Positions 78 through 25,817 are shown, counted from the first letter of the stretch. The stretch: 36,211 bases of DNA from Opitutales bacterium (GCA_965226885.1 CBDDEL010000007.1:1-36211), one strand, 5' to 3'. The notes: a model not told the origin generated them from the sequence alone. Program-made: numbers and translations.

Positions 78-1650
78 CCCGGATATTTCATGAAGGGTAA
101 AGTTTGGCTCGTTATTGCTATTGGAGATGGAGATGGATTTCTTTGTATTTTGAGCAGATCGTCTTGATTTTTAGGTGTTTTTCAGGGTGTAGAGACACTG
201 CCCCCTTTCCCCCATTGGTTCGGTAGTGCCGGGGGCAGCACCAATGCACCCTTTAGGTTGGCACCAATCGGCGGGCCGCATGGTTGAAAAGACTGGCCCA
301 AGGATAACTCTCACTTAGGTGAAAGTGAATCGTTCGGGTGTTGCGCACGATGACCGCTCCGATCTTGATTAATTTGAGCCGCAGGGTGTGGCATTGGGCC
401 CGCGCCCACTTCGTCCCTTTTAAGGCTAACCGGCGCATGGCTTCCATCAAGGTGTAGGCCAGCGCCGACAAGAGCAATCGGCACTGATTGGCCCACCATT
501 GATGGGCGCTGGTGCGCTCGCTGAACAATTGCATCTGTTCCTTGATTCGGTTCTCCATTTCACCGCGGCCACAGTATACCTTGTCGTAAAGCTCCTGGGG
601 ATCGCCCGGCAGGTTCGTCACCACGAAGCGCGGGTTGGACCCCTGTGCGGTGTGTTCGGCTTTATGGATGACCAACCGCAGCCATCGCCACGAATCGGCA
701 GCATAGACGAAGTCCTGGAATAACCGTTGTTTTTCACCCCTTAGTTCGAACCATTCTTTGGCCTGCTTTTGCAACTGCTGGGCGTCTTGCTGCAAGCGTG
801 CATTGCGAGCCATCCCCACGATGTAACTAACTTCGTTGCGGTCGCACCAAGAGAGTATCCGGTCTCGACAAAATCCACTGTCGGCGCGCCAAATAATCCG
901 CGTACGGGGCCAGCTTTGGCGCATCCGTTTAACCAGCAATTTGAGGATGGCCCCGGCATGCTTGCTGGCATCGATCTTGCTCGGCCGCAGGTAGGCCACC
1001 AGCAGCTGATCACCGCAAAAAACATATAGCGGCAGAAAACAGTAATGATCATAATAACCGTGGAAAAAACGTCCCTCCTGGAGCCCGTGCACCGGAGTGT
1101 CGGTGGCGTCAAAGTCCAGGATGATCTCTTCGGGTTCCTCGGCAAAGGAGCCCATGAACTGTTCGACCAACAGCTCGTTTACCGCAAAGGCCGCCCGCCG
1201 ATCCTGCCCGTTTTCAAAACGACACAAAGTCGGCGCGCTGGCCAACGTTTCAATGCGCCCCGTTACCGTTTGCAACAATGGATCGTGGCGCAGGGTATCA
1301 AAGTCGTTCAAATCCTCATAGCCCGCCACCAGCCCGTAAACGCGCTGCCGCAGCATCCCCAATACCTCATGGCGTACTTTGCCCTTCTGCCGTTTGTCCA
1401 CTAACTGTCGGGCCGCTCGTTCGGTCAAGCCCAACTGCCGATCCACTTCCCGGATCAAAAGCAGTCCGGCATCCGAAGTAACCTCTCCGCCCTTGAAATC
1501 AACCCGCACACGGCGGCCTTTTACCCTTGTCAACTGTAGCTTTAATTGTTTACCTTTTGTCATCGCTGATATTGCTTTAATTATTGATCTATCCTGCTGT
1601 ATATCAGCAGTTAAGCATATCAACGATACTTTTTTTACGAAATATCCGGG
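78..1650 (-). mobile_element. IS1380-family insertion sequence, complete, flanked by CTAG direct repeats
   Basis: Terminal inverted repeats CCCGGATATTTCATGAA (78-94) and TTACGAAATATCCGGG (1635-1650); CTAG at 74-77 and 1651-1654; single DDE transposase inside. Confidence 0.92.
253..1563 (-). CDS. IS1380-family transposase (436 aa from the ATG at 1563; ORF track extends to 1623)
   Basis: Motifs VTSDAGLLL, GYEDLND..LRHDP, IILDFDATD, FFHGYY, WRADSGF, YCGRGEMENRIKE, TLRLKLIKIGA are typical of IS1380 transposases. Confidence 0.93.
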   Translation of the reverse strand: MTKGKQLKLQLTRVKGRRVRVDFKGGEVTSDAGLLLIREVDRQLGLTERAARQLVDKRQKGKVRHEVLGMLRQRVYGLVAGYEDLNDFDTLRHDPLLQTVTGRIETLASAPTLCRFENGQDRRAAFAVNELLVEQFMGSFAEEPEEIILDFDATDTPVHGLQEGRFFHGYYDHYCFLPLYVFCGDQLLVAYLRPSKIDASKHAGAILKLLVKRMRQSWPRTRIIWRADSGFCRDRILSWCDRNEVSYIVGMARNARLQQDAQQLQKQAKEWFELRGEKQRLFQDFVYAADSWRWLRLVIHKAEHTAQGSNPRFVVTNLPGDPQELYDKVYCGRGEMENRIKEQMQLFSERTSAHQWWANQCRLLLSALAYTLMEAMRRLALKGTKWARAQCHTLRLKLIKIGAVIVRNTRTIHFHLSESYPWASLFNHAARRLVPT

Positions 1651-3132
1651 CTAGGCCGCCGCTTTGGTTTTTAGTTCGTCTTGCTGGGCCAGCATCTTGG
1701 CTACTTTCCATAGGTTGTGCGAGAGTACCGACCAGGCTACGCTGATCGAGCGGTTGGCAAAGCCTTTGCTGCGCAACCGCCCGGCCTGCCAGCGATTCTT
1801 CAATACCCCGATCCGCCCTTCGGTGCTGGCCCGGCGCTTTTGCAATTGTCTGAACAGTGGTTCCTCCCTCCGTTTTTTCAACTGCTTCGGATCGCGTGGA
1901 CAGAGCGCGTCGTAGATTCCCTCCTGGGCTAACTGCCGGCGGGCCCGCTGGGAGGCAAATCCCCGGTCCGCGCACATGGCCGCTATGGGTTCTTCCAGGT
2001 TGAAGCGGTTCTGTCTTTGCAAACTCTCTTGCATTTGTTCATTTTCGCTTGGAGTTCGGCTGCCGTAGAGTTTCCAGTCCAGCAGGTACCCTTCAACGCT
2101 TTCTCCCAAAAACAGGGTGTTGCCGAACTCGACCTCTTGGCCCGCTTTACCTCGCACAATCACCTGCCCATCGAGTTCGTAAACACTCAAGACTTTCTCT
2201 GCGTTTTTCACCTGGCGGCCGCCAATGATCCGCTCGTGCGCCTGTTTGATGACCACCGGGATTTGCTCGCTCATGCGCTCCATCCGGGCGAGGATCTGTT
2301 GGACCTGTTTTTCGCTGTAATCGCTTTGCTCCCAGCAGGCTTGCAATAATTCCCGGTGACTGCGGGCATGCTCCCCGATCCGTTTGAGCAGCTTTTTCAT
2401 CTGCCTCAAGATACCCTTGCGCTGCCGCGCGCTGTCCTTTCGCCGCCGGCTGTGGGTCATCTGTATGCACAGCCGATTCATCTGCCGAGCCAAGGGCTCC
2501 GGTTCGATCGGCATGCGATGGCGCACACCGGCCTTCTCGCGGATCAGCCGGATCGCTTTGAGCAACGTGCCGGCTACATCCTTGAGTAATACCCAGTCCG
2601 TCGGCCAATGAATGTTAGCCTCCAAACAGGTGCCGTCGATCAGGCAAATGGTGGTGTCAATCGGCTTGTCCAATCCCACCTGCCGGGCCAGAAGGGCATC
2701 GCCCACCACCTCAGTCAAGGTCCGGTGCAAGGCCCTCAACTGCTCTTCGCTGAAAAACTTCGAGGCCCGCTCCAGGGTGCTTTTGGAGATGCCCCTGATG
2801 CCATCGATCTGCCGGACACGGCAAAAGTCGGCCAACAGATCGCTGCTGCCCAGAGCCCGCGACAAATGCCGAAACGAAATCCCTCCGAGCAGACGGCCCA
2901 GCGTATCCATGCGCAGTGCCTTGATGGCAAAACTGGCCCGCTGCCGCCGGGCCTTTAGACCCATTGGCGGCCACCCCTCCAAGGCCAGCTCAATGGCCTG
3001 CGATTCCACCTCCGAGTCGATCAGCAGCCGATCGATTCGATCAATGGTGGCGCGGAAGTTATCGTAATCGAGGCACCGGTCGACCACAGTTAAAGCTGGA
3101 CGCAGGAGGCATTGGATGGCTATATTTTTCAT
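1651..3132 (-). CDS. DDE transposase, IS5/ISNCY-like (493 aa)
   Basis: IDGTCLEANIHWPTD, IVRGKAGQEVEFG, CADRGF and RRASTEGRIGVLK resemble IS5-type DDE motifs; lies within IR-bounded repeated DNA. Confidence 0.85.
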   Translation of the reverse strand: MKNIAIQCLLRPALTVVDRCLDYDNFRATIDRIDRLLIDSEVESQAIELALEGWPPMGLKARRQRASFAIKALRMDTLGRLLGGISFRHLSRALGSSDLLADFCRVRQIDGIRGISKSTLERASKFFSEEQLRALHRTLTEVVGDALLARQVGLDKPIDTTICLIDGTCLEANIHWPTDWVLLKDVAGTLLKAIRLIREKAGVRHRMPIEPEPLARQMNRLCIQMTHSRRRKDSARQRKGILRQMKKLLKRIGEHARSHRELLQACWEQSDYSEKQVQQILARMERMSEQIPVVIKQAHERIIGGRQVKNAEKVLSVYELDGQVIVRGKAGQEVEFGNTLFLGESVEGYLLDWKLYGSRTPSENEQMQESLQRQNRFNLEEPIAAMCADRGFASQRARRQLAQEGIYDALCPRDPKQLKKRREEPLFRQLQKRRASTEGRIGVLKNRWQAGRLRSKGFANRSISVAWSVLSHNLWKVAKMLAQQDELKTKAAA

Positions 3133-3290: not shown

Positions 3291-4529
3291 ATGCAGGAGG
3301 CGGCTTTTAGGGGAAATCGGTATAGGGCCCTGATTTATCAGGCGGGGCGTGGGCGGACGGATTGGATCCAGCCTATTTGCATGGGTGTTTTGTGCGTCAT
3401 GGGTGTATTTTTTATTTATTCGGCGCAGGTGTATAGCGGGCAGTCGCTTTGGATTCGGCAGGTAGTGTGGATTGTTCTGGGGGCGGGCGTCTATATTGCG
3501 GTTTCTTTGCTGGATTACAAGATTTTACTGGAGAAGGCGCACTTGATTTACTTTGGTTCGGTGGTGCTTTTACTGCTGCTGTGGACGCCTTTGGGGGGGG
3601 TGCGATTTGATTCGCGGCGTTGGCTGGACCTGGGAGTGGCATCGTTTCAGCCGTCGGAGGCGGCCAAGATCGGTGTGCTGGTGATGGTGTCGAGTTTGCT
3701 GGCTAGGTCGGAGGTGGGATCGGTCCGGGAGTCGGTTTCGATATTGGTGAAAGTGGGTATCGTGGTGGGGGTACCTATTTTGTTGATTTTTTGGCAACCC
3801 GACCTAGGCTCTGCATTGGTAATACCACCAATGGTCTTTTCTTTATTATACGTTTCGAAGCTTTCCAAGCGGTTTTTCATGTCGGTTTTCGCGTTGTTTG
3901 CGCTGTTATCGGCGGTGCTGGCTGTGGATATGTACCGGTATCTGCATTTTTTGCAGGATAACGAGCTTTCGGCTTACGACAACCGGGGGGAATACGAAAA
4001 GCATTCGTGGATTCCGCTTAAAGATTATCAACGAAACCGCATACTCACTCAATTTGTGCCCGAGGCGATCGATCCGAGAGGGATCGGTGTGAGCTGGAAC
4101 CAGCGCCAGTCTTTGCTTTCGGTCGGCTCAGGGGGATTGATCGGCAAGGGCTGGGGTGAGGGGACTCAGGCCAAGCTAGGCTACCTGCCCCAGTCGGTAG
4201 CGCACAATGACTTTCTTTTCGCCGTGCTGGCCGAGGAAAAAGGTTATTTGGGCAGTATGGCCGTGGTTTTCCTTTTCGCCTTGATTGTTTTCAATGGTGT
4301 GCGTATTGCCGGAGTGGCGCGCGACCGTTTTGGCATGTTGTTGAGCATCGGGGTGAGCGTAATTTTCATTGTCCACATTTATATCAATATCGGCATGACG
4401 ATCAACTTGATGCCGATAACAGGCCTGCCTTTACCATTTCTCAGTTACGGCGGGTCCTTTATTTTAAGTTGTTGTCTTCTGCAAGGTTTGGTCCAAAGCG
4501 TATACCGCTGTCGGAGGGAATTTTTATGA
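3291..4529 (+). CDS. rodA: SEDS-family peptidoglycan glycosyltransferase RodA (FtsW/RodA/SpoVE)
   Basis: Multi-pass membrane protein with SRRWLDLG..FQPSE.AK, QPDLGSA, YQRNRI, GSGGLIGKG, HNDFLFAVLAEE and PITGLPLPFLSYGGS. Confidence 0.9.
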   Translation: MQEAAFRGNRYRALIYQAGRGRTDWIQPICMGVLCVMGVFFIYSAQVYSGQSLWIRQVVWIVLGAGVYIAVSLLDYKILLEKAHLIYFGSVVLLLLLWTPLGGVRFDSRRWLDLGVASFQPSEAAKIGVLVMVSSLLARSEVGSVRESVSILVKVGIVVGVPILLIFWQPDLGSALVIPPMVFSLLYVSKLSKRFFMSVFALFALLSAVLAVDMYRYLHFLQDNELSAYDNRGEYEKHSWIPLKDYQRNRILTQFVPEAIDPRGIGVSWNQRQSLLSVGSGGLIGKGWGEGTQAKLGYLPQSVAHNDFLFAVLAEEKGYLGSMAVVFLFALIVFNGVRIAGVARDRFGMLLSIGVSVIFIVHIYINIGMTINLMPITGLPLPFLSYGGSFILSCCLLQGLVQSVYRCRREFL

Positions 4530-4661
4530 ATTCGAAATCGAATCCTATTCCCTATCCGCATCCGCGACCGAATCTTATTTCGACCGCAGGCGCGTGCAGG
4601 GGCGAAACACGGCAACTGAATAAGGTGAAGGGCCCAATCAACCCATATCACAGGATTCACT

Positions 4662-6416
4662 ATGAACCAATCTCATTCGCCTAAGACGAAAAACCCTAAT
4701 ATCTCCAGTAAACTAGAAAAAAAACTAAACGCTCCACCGAAGGAACAAGCCCAAGTCGATGTCAACCCGGAGCAATTACACCGGGAAGCCCGCGAACGGG
4801 CCAAGAAGCAACCGGTTGTCCAGCGAATAGTCAAGGCACTGAAAAAGGATACAGCGCCTTTTCGGGAAATCATCATCAATTCCGAGCCTCTGGAGCAGCG
4901 GGTGGCCTTGCTGGTGGAGGGCATCCTGGAAAAGTTCGAAATCGAGCGGATCGGCGAAGACCGCATGGTGGGGAGTATTTTCAAGGGGAAAATTCAAAAC
5001 CTGGAGCCGGGGTTGAAAGCGGCTTTTGTCGATATCGGACAACCCAAAAACGCCTTCCTGCACTATTGGGACATCTTGCCGGCGGCCAACGATTCCTCCA
5101 TCGAATTTGTCCGCGACACTCGCTCGGCGGAGCAAAAGAACAAGCGGGACAAAATCAGCCTGAAGGATATCCCCAAACTCTATCCGGTGGGCAAAGAGAT
5201 CGTTATCCAAGTAACCAAAGCCCAGATCGGCACCAAGGGCCCGCGCACCACCACCAACATTGCCTTGCCGGGCCGCTATCTGGTGCTCATGCCATTTTCC
5301 GGACAATGCGGTATATCCCGTAAAATTGAAAATTACAAAGAGCGGCAGCGGTTAAAGAGAATTCTCCGCAAGCTGACCATACCGGAAGGCATGGGAGTCA
5401 TCATCCGCACCGCCGGGGAGGCCAAAAAAATCCGCTTTTTTATCCGCGATCTGCATATTATGCTGCGCGAATGGGAGGAAATCCAGGACCGCTTGCAGGA
5501 GGCTAAACAACCGGCCTGCCTTTACCAGGAACCCGATATCATCGAGCGCACGGTGCGCGACTTTCTGACCGAAGAGATCGACCGGGTACTGATCGACAAC
5601 CCGGAGGACTATGAGCATATGTCCGAATTGGTGGCGGGCATTTCACCACGATCCAAGGGCAAGATCAACCACTTCAGCGAAAGCATCCCGATCTTCGAAC
5701 GATTCAACATCGAGCGTCAGATCGAGCAAACCTTCCAGCGCACCGTGCCCCTGCCCTCGGGGGGCGAGATTGTGGTTGAAGAGACGGAGGCTTTGATCGC
5801 CATCGACGTCAATACCGGAGCCCACAAAAACAAAAACAGTGACGGCAATAATTTCATCCTCCAGGTAAACCTGGAAGCGGCCCGGGAAATCGCCCGCCAA
5901 ATTCGCCTGCGCAATATCGGAGGATTGATCATCATCGATTTTATCGACATGAAACAGCGCAGGGACAGAAATAGCGTTCTCAAGATAATGCGCGACGAAA
6001 TGTCCAAAGACAAAGCCAAGTGCCACATATTGCCCATATCCCAACTCGGCATCATGCAAATGACACGCCAGCGCCATAAGGAAAGTTTTTCCTCCGGCAT
6101 CTACACCGGTTGCCCGTATTGCACGGCCCGAGGCATCGTTAAATCACCCCGCACCATGAGCGTCGAGGTGCAGCGCAGGCTGGTCAGCGTACTGCGGCGC
6201 TTGCGCGGCGGCAGCGCAAAGCAAGAAGAGCAAACACTCAACTTGCGGGTTCTATGCCACCCCAGCATACTTGAAAGAATGCGCCTGGAAGACGAAGCCC
6301 ATCTGATCGAGCTCGAAGATCTCTACAACGTCCGCCTCGCCTTCCGCGCCGACCCCTCCCACCATGTCGAAAATTTCACTATCCTCGACGCCGAGACCGG
6401 CCAGGAAATGCGCTAG
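4662..6416 (+). CDS. Rne/Rng-family ribonuclease (RNase E/G)
   Basis: S1 domain ([15 protein letters not shown]), [28 protein letters not shown] and a CPYC zinc link. Confidence 0.93.
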
Positions 6417-20519: not shown

Positions 20520-21987
20520 ATGGGTGATTCTTTTTCAGCGGACCCGGTAGTCCTGGGTATTGTCGCTCTTTATCTGGCGCTGATGCTCTACATCGGTTAC
20601 CGGGCATCGAAAAGAATCCGGACTAATGAGGACTTTACCCTGGCGGGCCGCCGGCTGGGGCCTGTCCTTCTGGCTGGAACCCTGGCCGCCACCGAGGCAG
20701 GAGGCGGAAGCTCCATGGGAGTGGCCGAAAAGGCCTATGGAGACTGGGGCCTGTCAGCTGGTTGGTACGTACTCGCCATGACCATAACTTTCGCCCTATT
20801 GGCCATTTTGGCGCCCAAGCTCCGCCAAGCGGGCGTGGCTACCGTGCCGGAGTTTTTTCGGCGGCGCTATGGCGAACCCAGCGGAATTATCACAGCTGTC
20901 ATCATGATTCTTCCACTGATTGGATTAACGGCCATTCAAATCATCGCTTCTTCCGTCATCGTTTCGGTCATGACAGGTTTGCCCTACTCCCTATGCGTAA
21001 TGGTCGTGGTGGTGGTGGTTACGGCATACTCCGTCATGGGTGGATTGTGGAGCGTCACCCTGACAGACTTCGTGCAAATCTTTCTCATTGTTGCCGGATT
21101 GCTTTTGGCGATCCCCTTTGCCCTCCATCACGGCGGAGGCTGGGAGAAAATCATGAGTTTTGTTCCGCGTGAAAAACTCAGCCTGACAGAAGGCATGGGA
21201 GTGGGGACGATCTTCTCCCTGATTGTAATTTATGTAACCTCCTTCGCTGTCGGGCAGGAGGCTGTGCAAAGGTACTATGCGGCCAAGGATGGGCGCTCGG
21301 CCGCCCTCAGTTCTATCTATGCCGGATCCATTTACCTGCTTTTCGCGTTTATTCCGGCCCTGCTTGGAGTGATTGCCTACAGCATGGTCCAGCATGGTCC
21401 AAAGCGGACTCATTGACGGGGCCGTCATCGCCCAACAGGGGGACAAATACGTTTTGCCAATTTTGGCTCTGGAGGTGATGCCTTCCTGGTTGGTCGGCCT
21501 GGTCTTTGCCGCCCTCATCTCAGCCACCATGTCGAGCGCGGACTCCGACCTGCTGGCGGCGGGTTCCATTTTCGCCAACGATATCTATGGCAAATGGATC
21601 CGCCCGGAAGCCGACGTCAGTGAGTTGCTGCGGGTCACCCGTTATACCATGATATTGGTGGCAGTTCTGGCTATGGCGATCGCTTTAACGCACTCCGATA
21701 GCCTCATCACAATTCTCATGTTTTCCTTCACCCTGAGAGCGGGCGGCGCTTTTTTCCCTTATGTCATCGGCCATTATTGGAAGAAAGCCAGCCTGGCCGG
21801 AGCCCTCGCTTCATTGGCCGGGGGCAGTATAACAGTGATTCTGGCCGAGCGGTTCAAAGAATCCTTTTACGGCCTGGAACCGGTCATTCCGGGATTGATT
21901 ATCAGTCTCGTTGCATTCATTGGATTTTCCAGCCTCATGCCCGCAAAAGAAAGCTCCGGCCAGAAAAAGCTGAAGCCGGATTATTGA
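20520..21987 (+). pseudogene. Sodium:solute symporter (SSS/PutP-like), frameshifted by a 10-bp duplication
   Basis: Two ORFs (20520-21416, 21373-21987) carry SSS motifs DFTLAGRRLG, TVPEFFRRRYG, GGLWSVTLTDFVQ, VQRYYAAKD and SATMSSADSDLL. CAGCATGGTC x2 at 21380-21399; removing one unit gives a single 485-aa ORF. Confidence 0.9.
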
Positions 21988-23426
21988 AGCTCTAAAGCCC
22001 GCTGCTGATACCATCTGCGAGCCATTGCCTGGGCTTCCTCGGCCTCTTGGGCGGAGAAATTGGAGCCCAGGGAAATACGCCCGGCAAAGTAGAAACTATC
22101 GATCAGTATGCAATACTGGTTATTCACCATCAGTCCCAGAAAGTCGCCCGTTTGGGCAAACACGAGGTCGCCGCGGGAAGGTGAAAATTCACCGAAAATA
22201 CGGCTGAAGACCTTGTTCTGCATGCGGAAATAACCCTCCAGTTTCGGGTCGAGCTTAAAACCCGACACTCCGTAATAACTTCCCTCGCCGTTGATCAGAA
22301 CCGCTTCCGGAAAACGTAAAGGCTCCAGGGCCAGCGGAAAAACCTTGATCCCTTCGTTTTTCACCACCTCGGCATTGACGGGAACGACCAGAACCCTCGG
22401 ATCGGCTGCCAGGAATCCCGCCTCGGACATTTCGATCCTCGTTTTGCCCACCAACAAAGTCCCGCTCACATCTTGCAGGTTGGGCGGCTGGCCGGTCAGC
22501 CGAAATGGAGTCTCCCGGGTATGAAAAACGGCGTAGGTCTTGATGCCGTCGGTTAAAAAAATGGTTTTTGCCTGGTAAAGCCGATTGCGTCCTCCGCTGA
22601 AAGCGGCGTCGAAACGGGCCATGGCGCGGTTATTTTTAAATGAATCGTAAATGAGATTGAGGGACAGAGGCTGGATTTGCCGAATTTCCTCCTGGATCGC
22701 AGTCGAGGATTGGGCCAGGATGCTGACCCCTTCCACCAACTGGTCGGTTTGCTTCTGAATGGTCTCCTTTTCCACCCGCACGGTTTCAATTTCTGTCCTC
22801 GCGGCCAACAGGTTTTCTTCCAGGATGCGTTTTTCGGTATCCTTTATCTGCAACTCGGTGGAAAGCTGCTGCATTTGACCTTCGACCGCCCGGCGCTGCC
22901 TTTCCCCTTCATTAATCTTTTCCGCGGCCTGCGTCAGTTCTTCATCGCGGGACTGCAATTGCTCCTGCAAAAACCGCACCCGCTCCTTTTCCGCGGCGGC
23001 GCTTTCGCGGCTCGAAATCAGATTCTCCACAAGATCGCTCTTTTCTTTTTTGGAGGCGGCCAAATCCTGCCGTGATTGCTCATAGCTGGTCGTCAGGTCG
23101 GTTTTCTCCAGTTCCAGGAGTTTTTGAGTATCGATAAGCTGTGATTTATCCTTCTCCAGCTCGCCCTTTTCCGCGGCCAGTTTCCGCGCTTCCTCCGCCT
23201 GCTCCAAAAGAGCTTTATTGAGCGCCTGGCGTTGATCCTCCTCAATTTGCAAGGAAAGCTTGAGGACGTCGATGAGGTCCTCTTTTTCGGCTGCTATTTC
23301 CTCGTTTTCAGCTACTGATTCGGGCGGCTCCGGCGGGGTTGCCTCATTCGGTTGGTCGAACCGCGCCAAGGCCAGCATGCTGATGAGGAGAAAATCAGCC
23401 AGTATCAGCAACAGAGCTTTGCTCAT
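21981..23426 (-). CDS. Hypothetical single-pass membrane protein: N-terminal TM with Asp (MotB/ExbD-like), long coiled coil, C-terminal beta-rich trypsin-like domain
   Basis: 481 aa. ALLLILADFLLISMLALA, Pro/Glu linker, E/K/Q/L heptads about aa 45-250, and FSPSRGDLVFAQTGDFLGLMVN near the C-terminus. The CDS is solid; the function is inferred. Confidence 0.75.
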   Translation of the reverse strand: MSKALLLILADFLLISMLALARFDQPNEATPPEPPESVAENEEIAAEKEDLIDVLKLSLQIEEDQRQALNKALLEQAEEARKLAAEKGELEKDKSQLIDTQKLLELEKTDLTTSYEQSRQDLAASKKEKSDLVENLISSRESAAAEKERVRFLQEQLQSRDEELTQAAEKINEGERQRRAVEGQMQQLSTELQIKDTEKRILEENLLAARTEIETVRVEKETIQKQTDQLVEGVSILAQSSTAIQEEIRQIQPLSLNLIYDSFKNNRAMARFDAAFSGGRNRLYQAKTIFLTDGIKTYAVFHTRETPFRLTGQPPNLQDVSGTLLVGKTRIEMSEAGFLAADPRVLVVPVNAEVVKNEGIKVFPLALEPLRFPEAVLINGEGSYYGVSGFKLDPKLEGYFRMQNKVFSRIFGEFSPSRGDLVFAQTGDFLGLMVNNQYCILIDSFYFAGRISLGSNFSAQEAEEAQAMARRWYQQRALELQ

Positions 23427-25077
23427 GGCTTTGGTTTTCCTTATCCTCCTGGATAATCAGGCTGCGCCGGAAGGGGCGCACATGAAAGATTTTTAGAAGG
23501 GCAACAAAAATAATTCCGAATAGGGTGGAGGAATAAGCGGCGATGAGGCTCGCCTGCACGATATCCATGGAAAGCAAAATGAGGGACAAAACCGTTCCCC
23601 CCAGGCCCACATAGAGCCCCAGGTCGAACAGATTGTCCTCGTTTTCCAGCAGCTTCATCTTGAAAGCGGGCTTCTCCGGCTGCTTCTTTATCTCCGTTAT
23701 CTTTATCAGGCAGAAGACGTAGACAATCAACTGAAGCAGAAAAAACAGGACAATTATGAGTAGGGTAATCTGATCCAGCATGACGGTTTCCAGGTTCTGC
23801 GATTTTAAGGACTGTAAATTATTGGCAACATTAAAGTCCAGGCGCAACTGTGCTTTTGGTTCGGGACCGCTCTCAAATAGTGTCGGTTCCATCAGCACCC
23901 ACAGCGTAATGGCGGCGAAAAGCGAAACGAAGCCGTTTTCCAGCATCATCACAGGGTGAAGCCGGGAAAGCCCGCGGTGGCGCATAAAGATTTCCCGCAC
24001 ATCGCTCAGGAACAAGGCCAGGGCGTAACCGGCCGCCAGGATGACAAAAATTTTCAGATTGATGGCGGCCTGGGGATGCCGGTGGGTGAAACTGAGCATG
24101 GGCGCTTGCGGGATCCACGAAATGGGCCTGTCCAGCAGTTGGACAAAGGCCGGTGGGCGGTAAAGCGGTTTGGTCTGGGCGATCAGCTCCGCAACCGCTC
24201 CTTTGCCGGACGAAAGGGCGAAATCGAGATTGCTCCAGCCGTCCTCCGGGTATTTTTTCACATATCGGAAAACTCCCTCCGCATCTTTGGATAGGAGAAT
24301 GAGGCTATAGATTAAGGGCAGATCGTCCGCCTGCCGGCGAAATGCGGCCGCTGTTTGCTCCACTTCGGTCCAATTGGAAAGCGATCCCATCAACTCTCTC
24401 AATTGCGTCCAATTGAACCGTTTGCCCAGACTAAGGAGTGACAGGTAGGTTTTTTCCAACCGGGACAGGGCGGCCCGTTTACCAGCCTGAGCTTCCTCCG
24501 CCAATAGACGCAAGTCCCGCGCCATCTGCGGTTCGATATGATTGCCTTGCAGCAACAGCGCGGTGGTCAGGATGGTTGCTTCCAGAGGCTGCCCGGCAGC
24601 AGAAGAAACCGGCATAAAGAGAACCGTGCCCGTCAACGACCGGGTGGCCAGAACCGATTTTACGGCCGCGTTGGCGGAGTATTCGAGGAAGTCCAGCATC
24701 TGCTTTCTGTTTTCGGCCGGAAGGAGGAGCAATATGATGTCCTCTCCCGAATGTTTTTCGGGCCTGATGCCGGCAATTTCCAGAAACTGCTCCAAATAAG
24801 GCGAAGGACCGCCCGTCAAGGCATATTGAGGCCTTTCCCTCAACAATTCTTCGAGCCGCGGATGGGTTGAATCCAGTAGCGCGGCCGGCCCGGCTTTCCC
24901 GGCATCCAGATAAAGGTCCGTCAATTGCTCGATGGTCGGTGTCCTGCGGCCCGCTTCGACCAGCACCCCCGGCGCCACCGTGCGGAAATGCACAGGAATG
25001 CCCGTCCCGAAAAGCGCCAGGACGCAGGCCAGGGCCAAAAACAAAAGAGCCTCTATAAAAATGCCAAGCTTAGACAT
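23395..25077 (-). CDS. Hypothetical multi-pass membrane protein with MotA/TolQ/ExbB-like C-terminal helices (560 aa from ATG 25077)
   Basis: N-terminal TM, large soluble domain, five further hydrophobic segments; GLYVGLGGTV and AAYSSTLFGI resemble the channel helices of the MotA/TolQ/ExbB family. Confidence 0.72.
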   Translation of the reverse strand: MSKLGIFIEALLFLALACVLALFGTGIPVHFRTVAPGVLVEAGRRTPTIEQLTDLYLDAGKAGPAALLDSTHPRLEELLRERPQYALTGGPSPYLEQFLEIAGIRPEKHSGEDIILLLLPAENRKQMLDFLEYSANAAVKSVLATRSLTGTVLFMPVSSAAGQPLEATILTTALLLQGNHIEPQMARDLRLLAEEAQAGKRAALSRLEKTYLSLLSLGKRFNWTQLRELMGSLSNWTEVEQTAAAFRRQADDLPLIYSLILLSKDAEGVFRYVKKYPEDGWSNLDFALSSGKGAVAELIAQTKPLYRPPAFVQLLDRPISWIPQAPMLSFTHRHPQAAINLKIFVILAAGYALALFLSDVREIFMRHRGLSRLHPVMMLENGFVSLFAAITLWVLMEPTLFESGPEPKAQLRLDFNVANNLQSLKSQNLETVMLDQITLLIIVLFFLLQLIVYVFCLIKITEIKKQPEKPAFKMKLLENEDNLFDLGLYVGLGGTVLSLILLSMDIVQASLIAAYSSTLFGIIFVALLKIFHVRPFRRSLIIQEDKENQSHEQSSVADTG

Positions 25078-25226
25078 GGAAAATCTTAAAATTTGACTTA
25101 GGATAAAACAACCAATCCTCTGCCGCCAACCCACAAATCGACTCCCTGGAGATTGCTTCCAGTCTGTCTCAACCCGCTCTTTTTTGATTGCCCGCGTCTT
25201 TCCGTTGCCCTTAGAGATAATCCGGC

Positions 25227-25817
25227 ATGACACTCAGAGTAACTCAATACGGTGAACCGGTCCTCCGCAAAAAAGGCCGGAAAGTTACCCGTTTCGACGG
25301 CCGGTTGATGGAATTGGCCAATGGCATGTTAGAGGCCATGCAAATTCACGACGGCATCGGGCTGGCTGCCCAACAGGTTGGCAAACCGATAAAAATGTGC
25401 CTGGTTGACATGCGCGTGGCTCAACGTAGAGAGGTTTTTAATTATATCTACGACGGGAAAAGACCGCCCCTGGAACTGCTCATGCCGATGGCCCTTATCA
25501 ATCCCAAAGTTGAATTTCTAGGCAAAAAAGAAACCCTGCGGGAGGAAGGCTGCCTCTCATTTCCGAAAATTTATGGCGAGATCGTCCGCCCGGAATCCAT
25601 CCGCGTAAAATTTCACGATTTGCAGGGCAACGGCCACACCCTTGAGTGCAACGGCCTTCTTTCTCGCGTCATCCAGCACGAAGTGGACCACCTCAACGGC
25701 GTTCTCTTTATCGCCCGCATGGACCGCAAAGCACTCAAAAAAATAGAGTCGCAACTCAAAAAGCTCAAAAAAAACTCCCTCGCGGCATTGAAAAAGAACC
25801 AGGAGAATTGCCGTTGA
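25227..25817 (+). CDS. def: Peptide deformylase
   Basis: GIGLAAQQVG, EGCLS and QHEVDHLNG. Confidence 0.96.
   Translation: MTLRVTQYGEPVLRKKGRKVTRFDGRLMELANGMLEAMQIHDGIGLAAQQVGKPIKMCLVDMRVAQRREVFNYIYDGKRPPLELLMPMALINPKVEFLGKKETLREEGCLSFPKIYGEIVRPESIRVKFHDLQGNGHTLECNGLLSRVIQHEVDHLNGVLFIARMDRKALKKIESQLKKLKKNSLAALKKNQENCR

Follow-up and report, generated by a model that had tools for sequence, protein, structure and literature searches.

What might be built by two overlapping genes whose products belong to no recognised protein family? The question is raised by a stretch of DNA from an Opitutales bacterium (GCA_965226885.1 CBDDEL010000007.1:1-36211), here called the window, by which we mean the whole 36,211 nucleotides analysed. 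A preliminary description of the window had picked out two minus-strand genes, here termed A and B, as a candidate ion-driven motor whose B subunit carries a coiled-coil stalk and a trypsin-like domain. On balance, we lean slightly towards the view that A and B together form one inner-membrane complex that would work, by analogy, as an ion-driven motor of the MotAB/ExbBD/TolQR kind, in a very divergent 5:2 variant. Within this view it is conservation, gene pairing, the pattern of membrane topology and the trypsin fold of B that are directly supported by the data given below.

Gene A (positions 23395 to 25077, minus strand) encodes a 560-residue, six-helix inner-membrane protein with a large predicted periplasmic domain and a conserved C-terminal core, and gene B (21981 to 23426, minus strand) encodes a protein of 481 residues. 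The two genes overlap by 32 bases (23395-23426), as had been described, and neither protein has a significant family match in Pfam, NCBIfam or PADLOC. The open reading frame (ORF) containing gene A is longer (23395 to 25233, minus strand; 612 residues counted from GTG). We prefer the 560-residue form, which starts with MSKLGIF at position 25077, since the 120 homologues listed are 543-774 residues long and their alignment begins at MSK or MTK. The short motifs on which attention had first centred were all found in the proteins to which they had been assigned: GLYVGLGGTV at A 487-496, AAYSSTLFGI at A 513-522, LILADFLL at B 7-14 (which places the aspartate at residue 11), and AVFH, ADPR and FSPSRGDLVFAQTGDFLGLMV at B 299-302, 341-344 and 414-434, respectively.

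Kyte-Doolittle hydropathy gave six hydrophobic segments in A (residues ~4-27, 339-362, 378-404, 437-460, 486-505 and 506-531; here transmembrane helices TM1 to TM6), the first and second being separated by a soluble stretch of 310 residues, and a single segment in B (5-23). This agrees with the earlier outline of A as a set of C-terminal membrane helices preceded by further helices and a soluble domain of more than 300 residues. Judging from the distribution of Lys and Arg, the N terminus of A, its loops 363-377 and 461-485 and its C-terminal tail are likely to be cytoplasmic, and A 28-338 (24064 to 24996, minus strand), for which no PDB or Pfam match was found, is predicted to be periplasmic together with nearly all of B. 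In this predicted topology, what A exposes to the cytoplasm beyond its helices is mainly a 25-residue loop and a 29-residue tail.

To what extent do the two genes travel together? A first search with A returned 316 relatives at E<=0.001, none with a Pfam domain, and those that are named are all labelled 'hypothetical' with organism labels of Opitutales type. A relative of A is encoded in at least 547 stretches (contigs, with one genome taken per species), from which 80 Opitutales-type loci were used to count linkage; conservation of A and B across hundreds of species argues that the features of the pair are not due to chance. In 59 of the 80 loci the gene immediately after A is B. The remaining 21 comprise one in which the N-terminus of B is present at the contig end, two that end too soon, two with other ORFs and 16, from gut-type lineages, in which lpxA follows A (the identity of lpxA was confirmed in one of the 16). 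Where B is unlinked from A, it is still encoded elsewhere in the genome (five of five genomes checked; E 1e-98 to 1e-104), and no second A, nor a shortened A of the type described below, was found next to the unlinked B in those five. In one gut-type genome (G001), B lies ~180 kb from A on the same contig, beside a conserved gene of ~316 residues.

We extended these counts to the phylum by surveying 201 Verrucomicrobiota genomes of at least 90% completeness, with B scored by its head domain. A was found in 72 genomes and the B head in 71: both were present in 71, A alone in one (G156), B alone in none and neither in 129, counts that are descriptive because related genomes are not independent. 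Both genes are present in 26 of the 38 genomes of the same order, the other 12 having neither, and 31 of the 32 genomes from a further family carry the pair; neither gene was found in any of the genomes searched from the same class outside the order. Another 45 genomes with A belong to other classes, and in these the match is limited to the last ~115 residues of A.

Among the latter lineages, the Kiritimatiellia are informative as to the minimal form of the system. In all 12 Kiritimatiellia loci examined an A homologue is followed by a B-like gene, and taken together with the 59 of 80 adjacent Opitutales-type pairs and the co-occurrence of B in 71 of the 72 A-positive genomes, this bears out a conserved order of A then B in both lineages. 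Ten of the 12 A homologues are only 169-224 residues long (mini-A); the others are a 287-residue ORF, which likely has a later start, and a protein of 601 residues. The accompanying B-like genes encode 529-641 residues, except at one locus that shows only a 279-residue C-terminal ORF, and an exact-sequence look-up named Kiritimatiella glycovorans and Pontiella agarivorans as two of the organisms with such loci. Mini-A has four helices, with both termini inside according to its charges, and is without the soluble domain of long A. Because mini-A is followed by a B-like gene in these loci, what the two lineages share is a four-helix A together with B. On comparison of the sequences, Opitutales A is the mini-A form to which an N-terminal helix, a periplasmic domain and another helix have been added, and the alignment and a structural model place the shared four-helix core (TM3-TM6) at residues 375-560 of the window protein (23398 to 23955, minus strand). 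The 601-residue form (locus L102 of genome G031, 3554-5359, plus strand) belongs to a non-Opitutales family with a long A in both of its genomes (G031 and G181), and its N-terminal part matches a portion of the Opitutales periplasmic domain (profile positions 189-551), which shows that long A also occurs outside the order.

If the pair acts within the membrane, which of its parts have been kept? We addressed this for A using 33 core sequences spanning both lineages (Opitutales-type and Kiritimatiellia). Mean column identity is highest in TM5 and TM6 (0.81 and 0.82), as against 0.44-0.48 in TM1-3, with TM4 (437-460; 23698 to 23769, minus strand) at 0.68. Nine residues are listed as invariant in all 33 cores (Q449 in TM4, together with D485, Y489, G491, G494, V496, Y515, S517 and G521), and T495 and T518 are each found in 32, with Ser in the remaining one, so that the two threonines singled out in the preliminary description are indeed conserved. 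Most of these residues fall within the TM5-TM6 hairpin (486-531; 23485 to 23622, minus strand), which contains GLYVGLGGTV and AAYSSTLFGI and whose helices are candidates for lining an ion path. It is preceded by the Lys-rich, predicted cytoplasmic loop 461-485 (23623 to 23697, minus strand), which ends in LLENEDNLFD and in which L477, like D485, is found in 33 of 33 sequences.

A similar picture emerged for B, in which the most conserved segment is the single membrane helix (mean column identity 0.78; residues 1-24, 23355 to 23426, minus strand, with three residues preceding the helix). Its aspartate, Asp11 (codon 23394-23396), occupies the same position in all 72 loci in which the N-terminus was found, and could also be recognised by eye in three Kiritimatiellia proteins missed by a small profile; the residue is thus conserved across homologues, as the motor reading of the preliminary description requires. 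Conservation of this order in the B helix and in TM5 and TM6 of A is unusual for a mere lipid anchor, and the conserved buried polar residues of both proteins would fit packing around an ion path. In a comparison by eye of the periplasmic end of the B helix with the TM5-TM6 loop of A, a search for charge-compensating substitutions turned up clade-level differences only.

Beyond the membrane, the alignment of B passes into a linker and an amphipathic helix (25-66; 23229 to 23354, minus strand; segment identities 0.32 and 0.60). Residues 25-50 include five Pro and many Glu, and residues 51-66 form the conserved amphipathic helix, with Leu59 and Glu62 invariant, which may represent a candidate plug or a contact with A. 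A coiled-coil stalk follows (67-254; 22665 to 23228, minus strand), for which B 38-252 matches only coiled-coil models (SMC_prok_B at E 5e-7, far below its cut-off). The stalk measures ~190 residues here, varies in length among relatives through insertions and deletions and is longer in Kiritimatiellia. Hydropathy, composition and coiled-coil model matches thus all agree with the layout first proposed for B, in which one N-terminal membrane helix with an aspartate leads into a Pro/Glu linker and a coiled coil. No ExbD/TolR periplasmic domain, MotB plug or OmpA-like domain was found in B by Pfam and NCBIfam searches at E<=1.

The stalk ends in a globular head, which had been described as trypsin-like and possibly a degenerate protease. 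The first part of this description proved sound. Residues 255-481 (21984 to 22664, minus strand) were modelled with AlphaFold2 (AF2) as a double beta-barrel of the trypsin-like PA clan with a C-terminal helix, at a predicted local distance difference test score (pLDDT) of 93.6 and a predicted template modelling score (pTM) of 0.90. With this model Foldseek gave 100 matches at E<=0.001, the 44 listed being trypsin-fold domains throughout: the best was Deg2 (2.2e-5), and DegP, HtrA, DegS, viral 3C-like proteases, V8, chymase and the non-catalytic S1C domain of RsgI9 were also found. In VIA comparisons, which aligned 150-183 residues at ~10% identity, the highest Z was 11.9, and 698 of 992 chains had Z>=8. 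On the strength of these models, the C-terminal domain of B has a trypsin-like fold. Its likeness to the HtrA/Deg (S1C) proteases and to RsgI9 S1C is one of structure (Foldseek E 2e-5 to 1e-4, probability 1.00; VIA Z 11-12); it differs from HtrA/Deg proteases in its low sequence identity, in having no PDZ domain and in the inconstancy of its candidate triad, and neither Pfam and NCBIfam peptidase families nor a head profile run against PDB sequences returned a protease.

Does the head cut? The window B retains candidate catalytic residues His302, Asp342 and Ser417, separated by 40 and 75 residues, a spacing that we take to be close to that of DegP, with Ser417 four residues before a strand, presumably as in GDSGGPLV. 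The family as a whole does not. The His-Asp-Ser set is complete in 19 of 36 Opitutales-type relatives, the others having His without Ser (4), Ser without His (5) or neither (8), and it is complete in none of 11 Kiritimatiellia sequences, in all of which the Ser site is E, D, A or Q. What does stay constant in the head is Asp-Pro-Arg, an Arg, Gly-Asp and two Gly. Since the triad is not maintained family-wide and these other residues are, the common function of the head is probably binding, with catalysis perhaps retained by a subset to which the window B may belong. The suggestion of a possibly degenerate protease is refined accordingly, the three candidate residues being present in the window protein and inconstant in the family.

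The kinship of A to MotA, ExbB and TolQ is a more delicate matter. In a pre-specified hhalign comparison, the A core aligned with a set of 128 MotA_ExbB sequences with a score of 29.2 (P 0.0016, 55 columns), in the register expected, with GLGGTV on GLLGTV and AYSSTLFG on ALITTxxG; two reversed alignments scored 11.5 and 13.5, and 30 within-block column shuffles reached a maximum of 18.5 (median 14). When the AF2 model of the A core (pLDDT 83.4, pTM 0.68) was submitted to Foldseek, the first five matches listed were four PomA chains and ExbB, and PomA, MotA, ExbB or TolQ accounted for 18 of the 44 matches listed. In VIA comparisons, 120-133 residues of A, from TM4-TM6, were superposed on TolQ and ExbB chains over their whole length, with Z 7.2-7.6; one such chain, ExbB 5sv0_E, gave Z 7.5 (122 residues; root-mean-square deviation 4.1 Å).

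A considerable body of results weighs against this kinship. The window protein has no match to the MotA_ExbB family PF01618 in Pfam at E<=1; only one of the 33 cores matches it, at E 0.032 and 14.4 bits against a cut-off of 22.9, and equally weak matches link A cores to many unrelated membrane families. A genome-wide PF01618 search found eight other genes and not gene A, and the hhalign comparison of the A core with these eight paralogues was not significant (E 0.22); even in the comparison with 128 sequences, hhalign assigned a probability of 16%. Profiles of A run against PDB sequences found no motor; these profiles and that of the B head drew only chance matches, among them peptide deformylase and designed helical proteins. 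Against 1.84 billion proteins, the core profile gave 526 matches at E<=0.001 (461 at 1e-10 and 307 at 1e-30), too few for the A core to be merging with the very large MotA/ExbB family, and the best 150 of the 526 (E<=7.9e-45), mostly of full A length, look like the A family itself. The structural evidence has similar limits. No Foldseek match to the A core reached E<=0.001, all being at 0.57 or worse; VIA scores of Z 7-9, in a range below ~13 that the tool itself warns is uninformative for helical models, were also given by unrelated helical bundles, including CorA (Z 9.1), ribosome recycling factor and spectrin; a wide VIA search with the core returned generic helical bundles; and the ESM Atlas offered unnamed Verrucomicrobiota clusters and no named look-alike. 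Finally, the neighbour survey of 80 Opitutales-type and 12 Kiritimatiellia loci found no third gene conserved beside the pair, so that, unlike the Tol and Ton systems, A/B appears to have no TolA/TonB-like partner beside it.

The MotA/ExbB fold proposed for A is thus suggested by the alignment register and by the Foldseek ranking, whereas sequence, Foldseek and VIA similarities all stay below significance. Since the individual tests, each below significance, point in the same direction, kinship is hinted at rather than established. A may work like a member of the MotA/ExbB/TolQ family, and descent from it is possible, but we do not file A as a member.

How, then, does the pair compare with known systems? 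Its resemblance to TolQ-TolR and ExbB-ExbD lies in the order of the genes, in a B protein with one N-terminal Asp-bearing helix and its bulk in the periplasm, and in an A protein with G-x-x-G-T-V and hydroxyl residues on its last two helices, whose best (weak) similarities, over TM4-TM6, are to TolQ and ExbB. The helices of the ExbD/TolR proteins of the same genome have a similar Asp-plus-hydrophobic pattern to that of B. Unlike TolQ and ExbB, A is missed by PF01618 and has no large cytoplasmic domain; unlike TolR and ExbD, B is without their periplasmic domain and has three residues before its helix as against ~20 in the ExbD/TolR proteins of this genome. The source genome has eight canonical MotA_ExbB genes (contigs C10, C11, C12, C13, C15 and C16), several followed by ExbD/TolR-like genes, so that the A/B pair exists alongside ordinary Ton/Tol-type motors.

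MotA has four helices with its N and C termini inside, a layout shared by mini-A, and it was PomA chains that took the top four places in the Foldseek search. A is unlike MotA and PomA in having no cytoplasmic torque-generating domain, B is unlike MotB and PomB in having no OmpA-like wall-binding domain, and there are no flagellar genes nearby. The post-linker helix of B could conceivably correspond to the MotB plug, described in a source that also provides the basis for the analogy with MotAB, ExbBD and TolQR motors (PMC9389320).

A closer precedent for the exchange of a periplasmic domain comes from TolQ-like genes paired with 'transpore helix'-vWA proteins, for which one report, a prediction that includes Verrucomicrobia, proposes an Asp helix inside a pentamer (PMC12204202). 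There, as here, a foreign periplasmic domain would take the place of the usual one on the B-type subunit; that report describes a recognisable TolQ homologue, a vWA head and often heterologous pairs (PMC12204202), whereas A here escapes family detection and B, encoded by one gene, joins a coiled coil to a trypsin-fold head.

Two further families were considered and rejected. In the gliding and type IX secretion motor GldL-GldM, work is done in the periplasm through a long dimeric B-type subunit, as we propose for B, and the charged pair is formed there by a GldL Glu and a GldM Arg rather than by an axle Asp. Membership of the GldLM family was rejected on account of this different charged pair and because no GldL chain was among the Foldseek and VIA matches listed for the A core. 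Zorya ZorA/ZorB was likewise rejected: PADLOC gave no Zor match, A has no cytoplasmic tail of that kind and the neighbours are housekeeping genes. ZorAB chains reached only VIA Z 7.5-8.8, among the generic helical matches to the A core.

If A and B do form a motor, then its stoichiometry, ring geometry, ion flow, rotation and target would have to be drawn by analogy. By comparison with MotAB, ExbBD and TolQR, a complex would contain five A and two B subunits, with the last two helices of A lining a ring that encloses the membrane helices of both B subunits. A periplasmic ion, probably a proton, would bind Asp11 of B, which would sit at roughly a third of the membrane's depth, counted from the cytoplasmic side, flanked by Thr495 and Ser517/Thr518 of A, and the ion cycle between TM5 and TM6 would turn A relative to B, with residues 51-66 of B possibly forming a plug or touching A. 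Since A has almost no cytoplasmic mass and mini-A has nothing outside the membrane, the output would be periplasmic and would be delivered through B. In this scheme two copies of B would pair along the coiled coil to make the shaft, and the trypsin-fold head at the end of each copy would bind a peptide-like target in the cell wall or outer membrane and, in some lineages, might cleave it.

Some of the same observations could be accommodated by a complex that does not rotate, in which B is an anchored HtrA-like protease or pseudoprotease on a stalk, A is a scaffold, a regulator or an unrelated channel, and the aspartate serves helix packing or the sensing of ions or pH. Such an arrangement, which we regard as unlikely while giving it real weight, would account for the facts that the trypsin-like head is the only strongly supported fold in the system, that no motor family matches A significantly and that the candidate His302/Asp342/Ser417 set of the window B recurs in 19 of 36 relatives. 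It is harder to reconcile with the pattern of conservation, in which the membrane helices, and not the head, are the most conserved parts of both proteins and the helix Asp is kept in 72 of 72 loci, whereas the Ser is missing from 12 of the 36 Opitutales-type relatives and from every one of the 11 Kiritimatiellia sequences. Nor would it explain why the weak similarities of A share one family and one register.

Another possibility is that the N-terminus of B is a cleavable signal peptide, cut after residue 21 (ALA|R), which would leave B soluble in the periplasm or secreted and its link to A purely genomic. The short positive n-region (MSK), the hydrophobic stretch and an Ala-x-Ala-like site (LALA-RF) are what one would look for in such a peptide. 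Signal peptides are usually poorly conserved, however, and here the ~19-residue stretch with its always-kept Asp is the most conserved part of B; the Kiritimatiellia B proteins have no Ala-x-Ala site, and B co-occurs with A in 71 of 72 genomes, all of which makes this account highly improbable. We think it just as improbable that B is a transmembrane sensor of the type of the anti-sigma factor RsgI9, which detects a ligand through an extracellular S1C domain, with A as an accessory. The S1C-NTF2 bi-domain of RsgI9 is among the best matches of the head (Foldseek E 1.1e-4; VIA Z 11.8 over 176 residues), but B has only three cytoplasmic residues and so no domain with which to engage a sigma factor or to signal, and the neighbour survey, in which the three frequent neighbour clusters were compared with Pfam, showed no conserved sigma factor or regulator.

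Were the 5:2 motor reading of A and B to hold, it would widen this class of machines by a ring subunit that has drifted beyond family detection, it would offer in the 169-224-residue mini-A a near-minimal ring subunit useful for defining what the mechanism needs, and it would add an output module of a new type, in which a coiled-coil shaft carries a trypsin-fold head. A stronger version of the proposal, which we advance tentatively and regard as doubtful at present, is that the pair constitutes a new motor family, restricted to Opitutales and Kiritimatiellia, in which a four-helix ring, a coiled-coil drive shaft and a protease-fold head would use the membrane potential to pull, unfold or cut a target; to our knowledge, the coupling that makes a protease-like arm mechanically powered has not been described for any known motor. 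The near-core status of the pair (26 of 38 same-order genomes, 31 of 32 in the other family), in two lineages known for polysaccharide degradation, makes it probable that A and B serve a lineage-typical envelope function. We found no description of the pair in the literature on such motors, a search that extended to articles and not to their supplementary files, which might list such genes. The portions of a survey of MotAB relatives drawn on here do not mention Opitutales or Kiritimatiella (PMC12505986), and searches based on PF01618, that survey included, can miss motor-like systems.

The genes that surround the pair in the window are of a housekeeping kind (def, dinB, proS, secDF, recJ, recQ, bipA, ftsW/rodA and RNase G). 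A Pfam scan found no OmpA, ExbD, TonB, flagellar or Zorya families in the pair or among 23 neighbouring ORFs, in line with the earlier statement that such partners are missing from the window. A methyltransferase is present in 28 of the 80 Opitutales-type loci, and peptide deformylase lies divergently upstream of A in 23, as it does in the window (25227-25817, plus strand). One database protein (P0125, 336 residues) matches 56% of B at 91% identity and yet carries a deformylase Pfam domain. In six of the 12 Kiritimatiellia loci, a Ser/Thr kinase-FGE-sulfatase fusion of ~870 residues is encoded directly downstream of B (for example L095, 577-3183, minus strand).

On the other side of the pair in the window, a sodium:solute symporter (PF00474) is split between two overlapping plus-strand ORFs, 20520-21416 (profile positions 1-263) and 21373-21987 (profile positions 273-406), pointing to a frameshift, a pseudogene or an error in sequencing; its end reaches seven bases into the 3' end of gene B on the opposite strand. 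The start of the window (253-3132, minus strand) is occupied by two adjoining DDE transposase genes (DDE_Tnp_1_4, E 1e-164, and DDE_Tnp_1), which lie beside ftsW/rodA.

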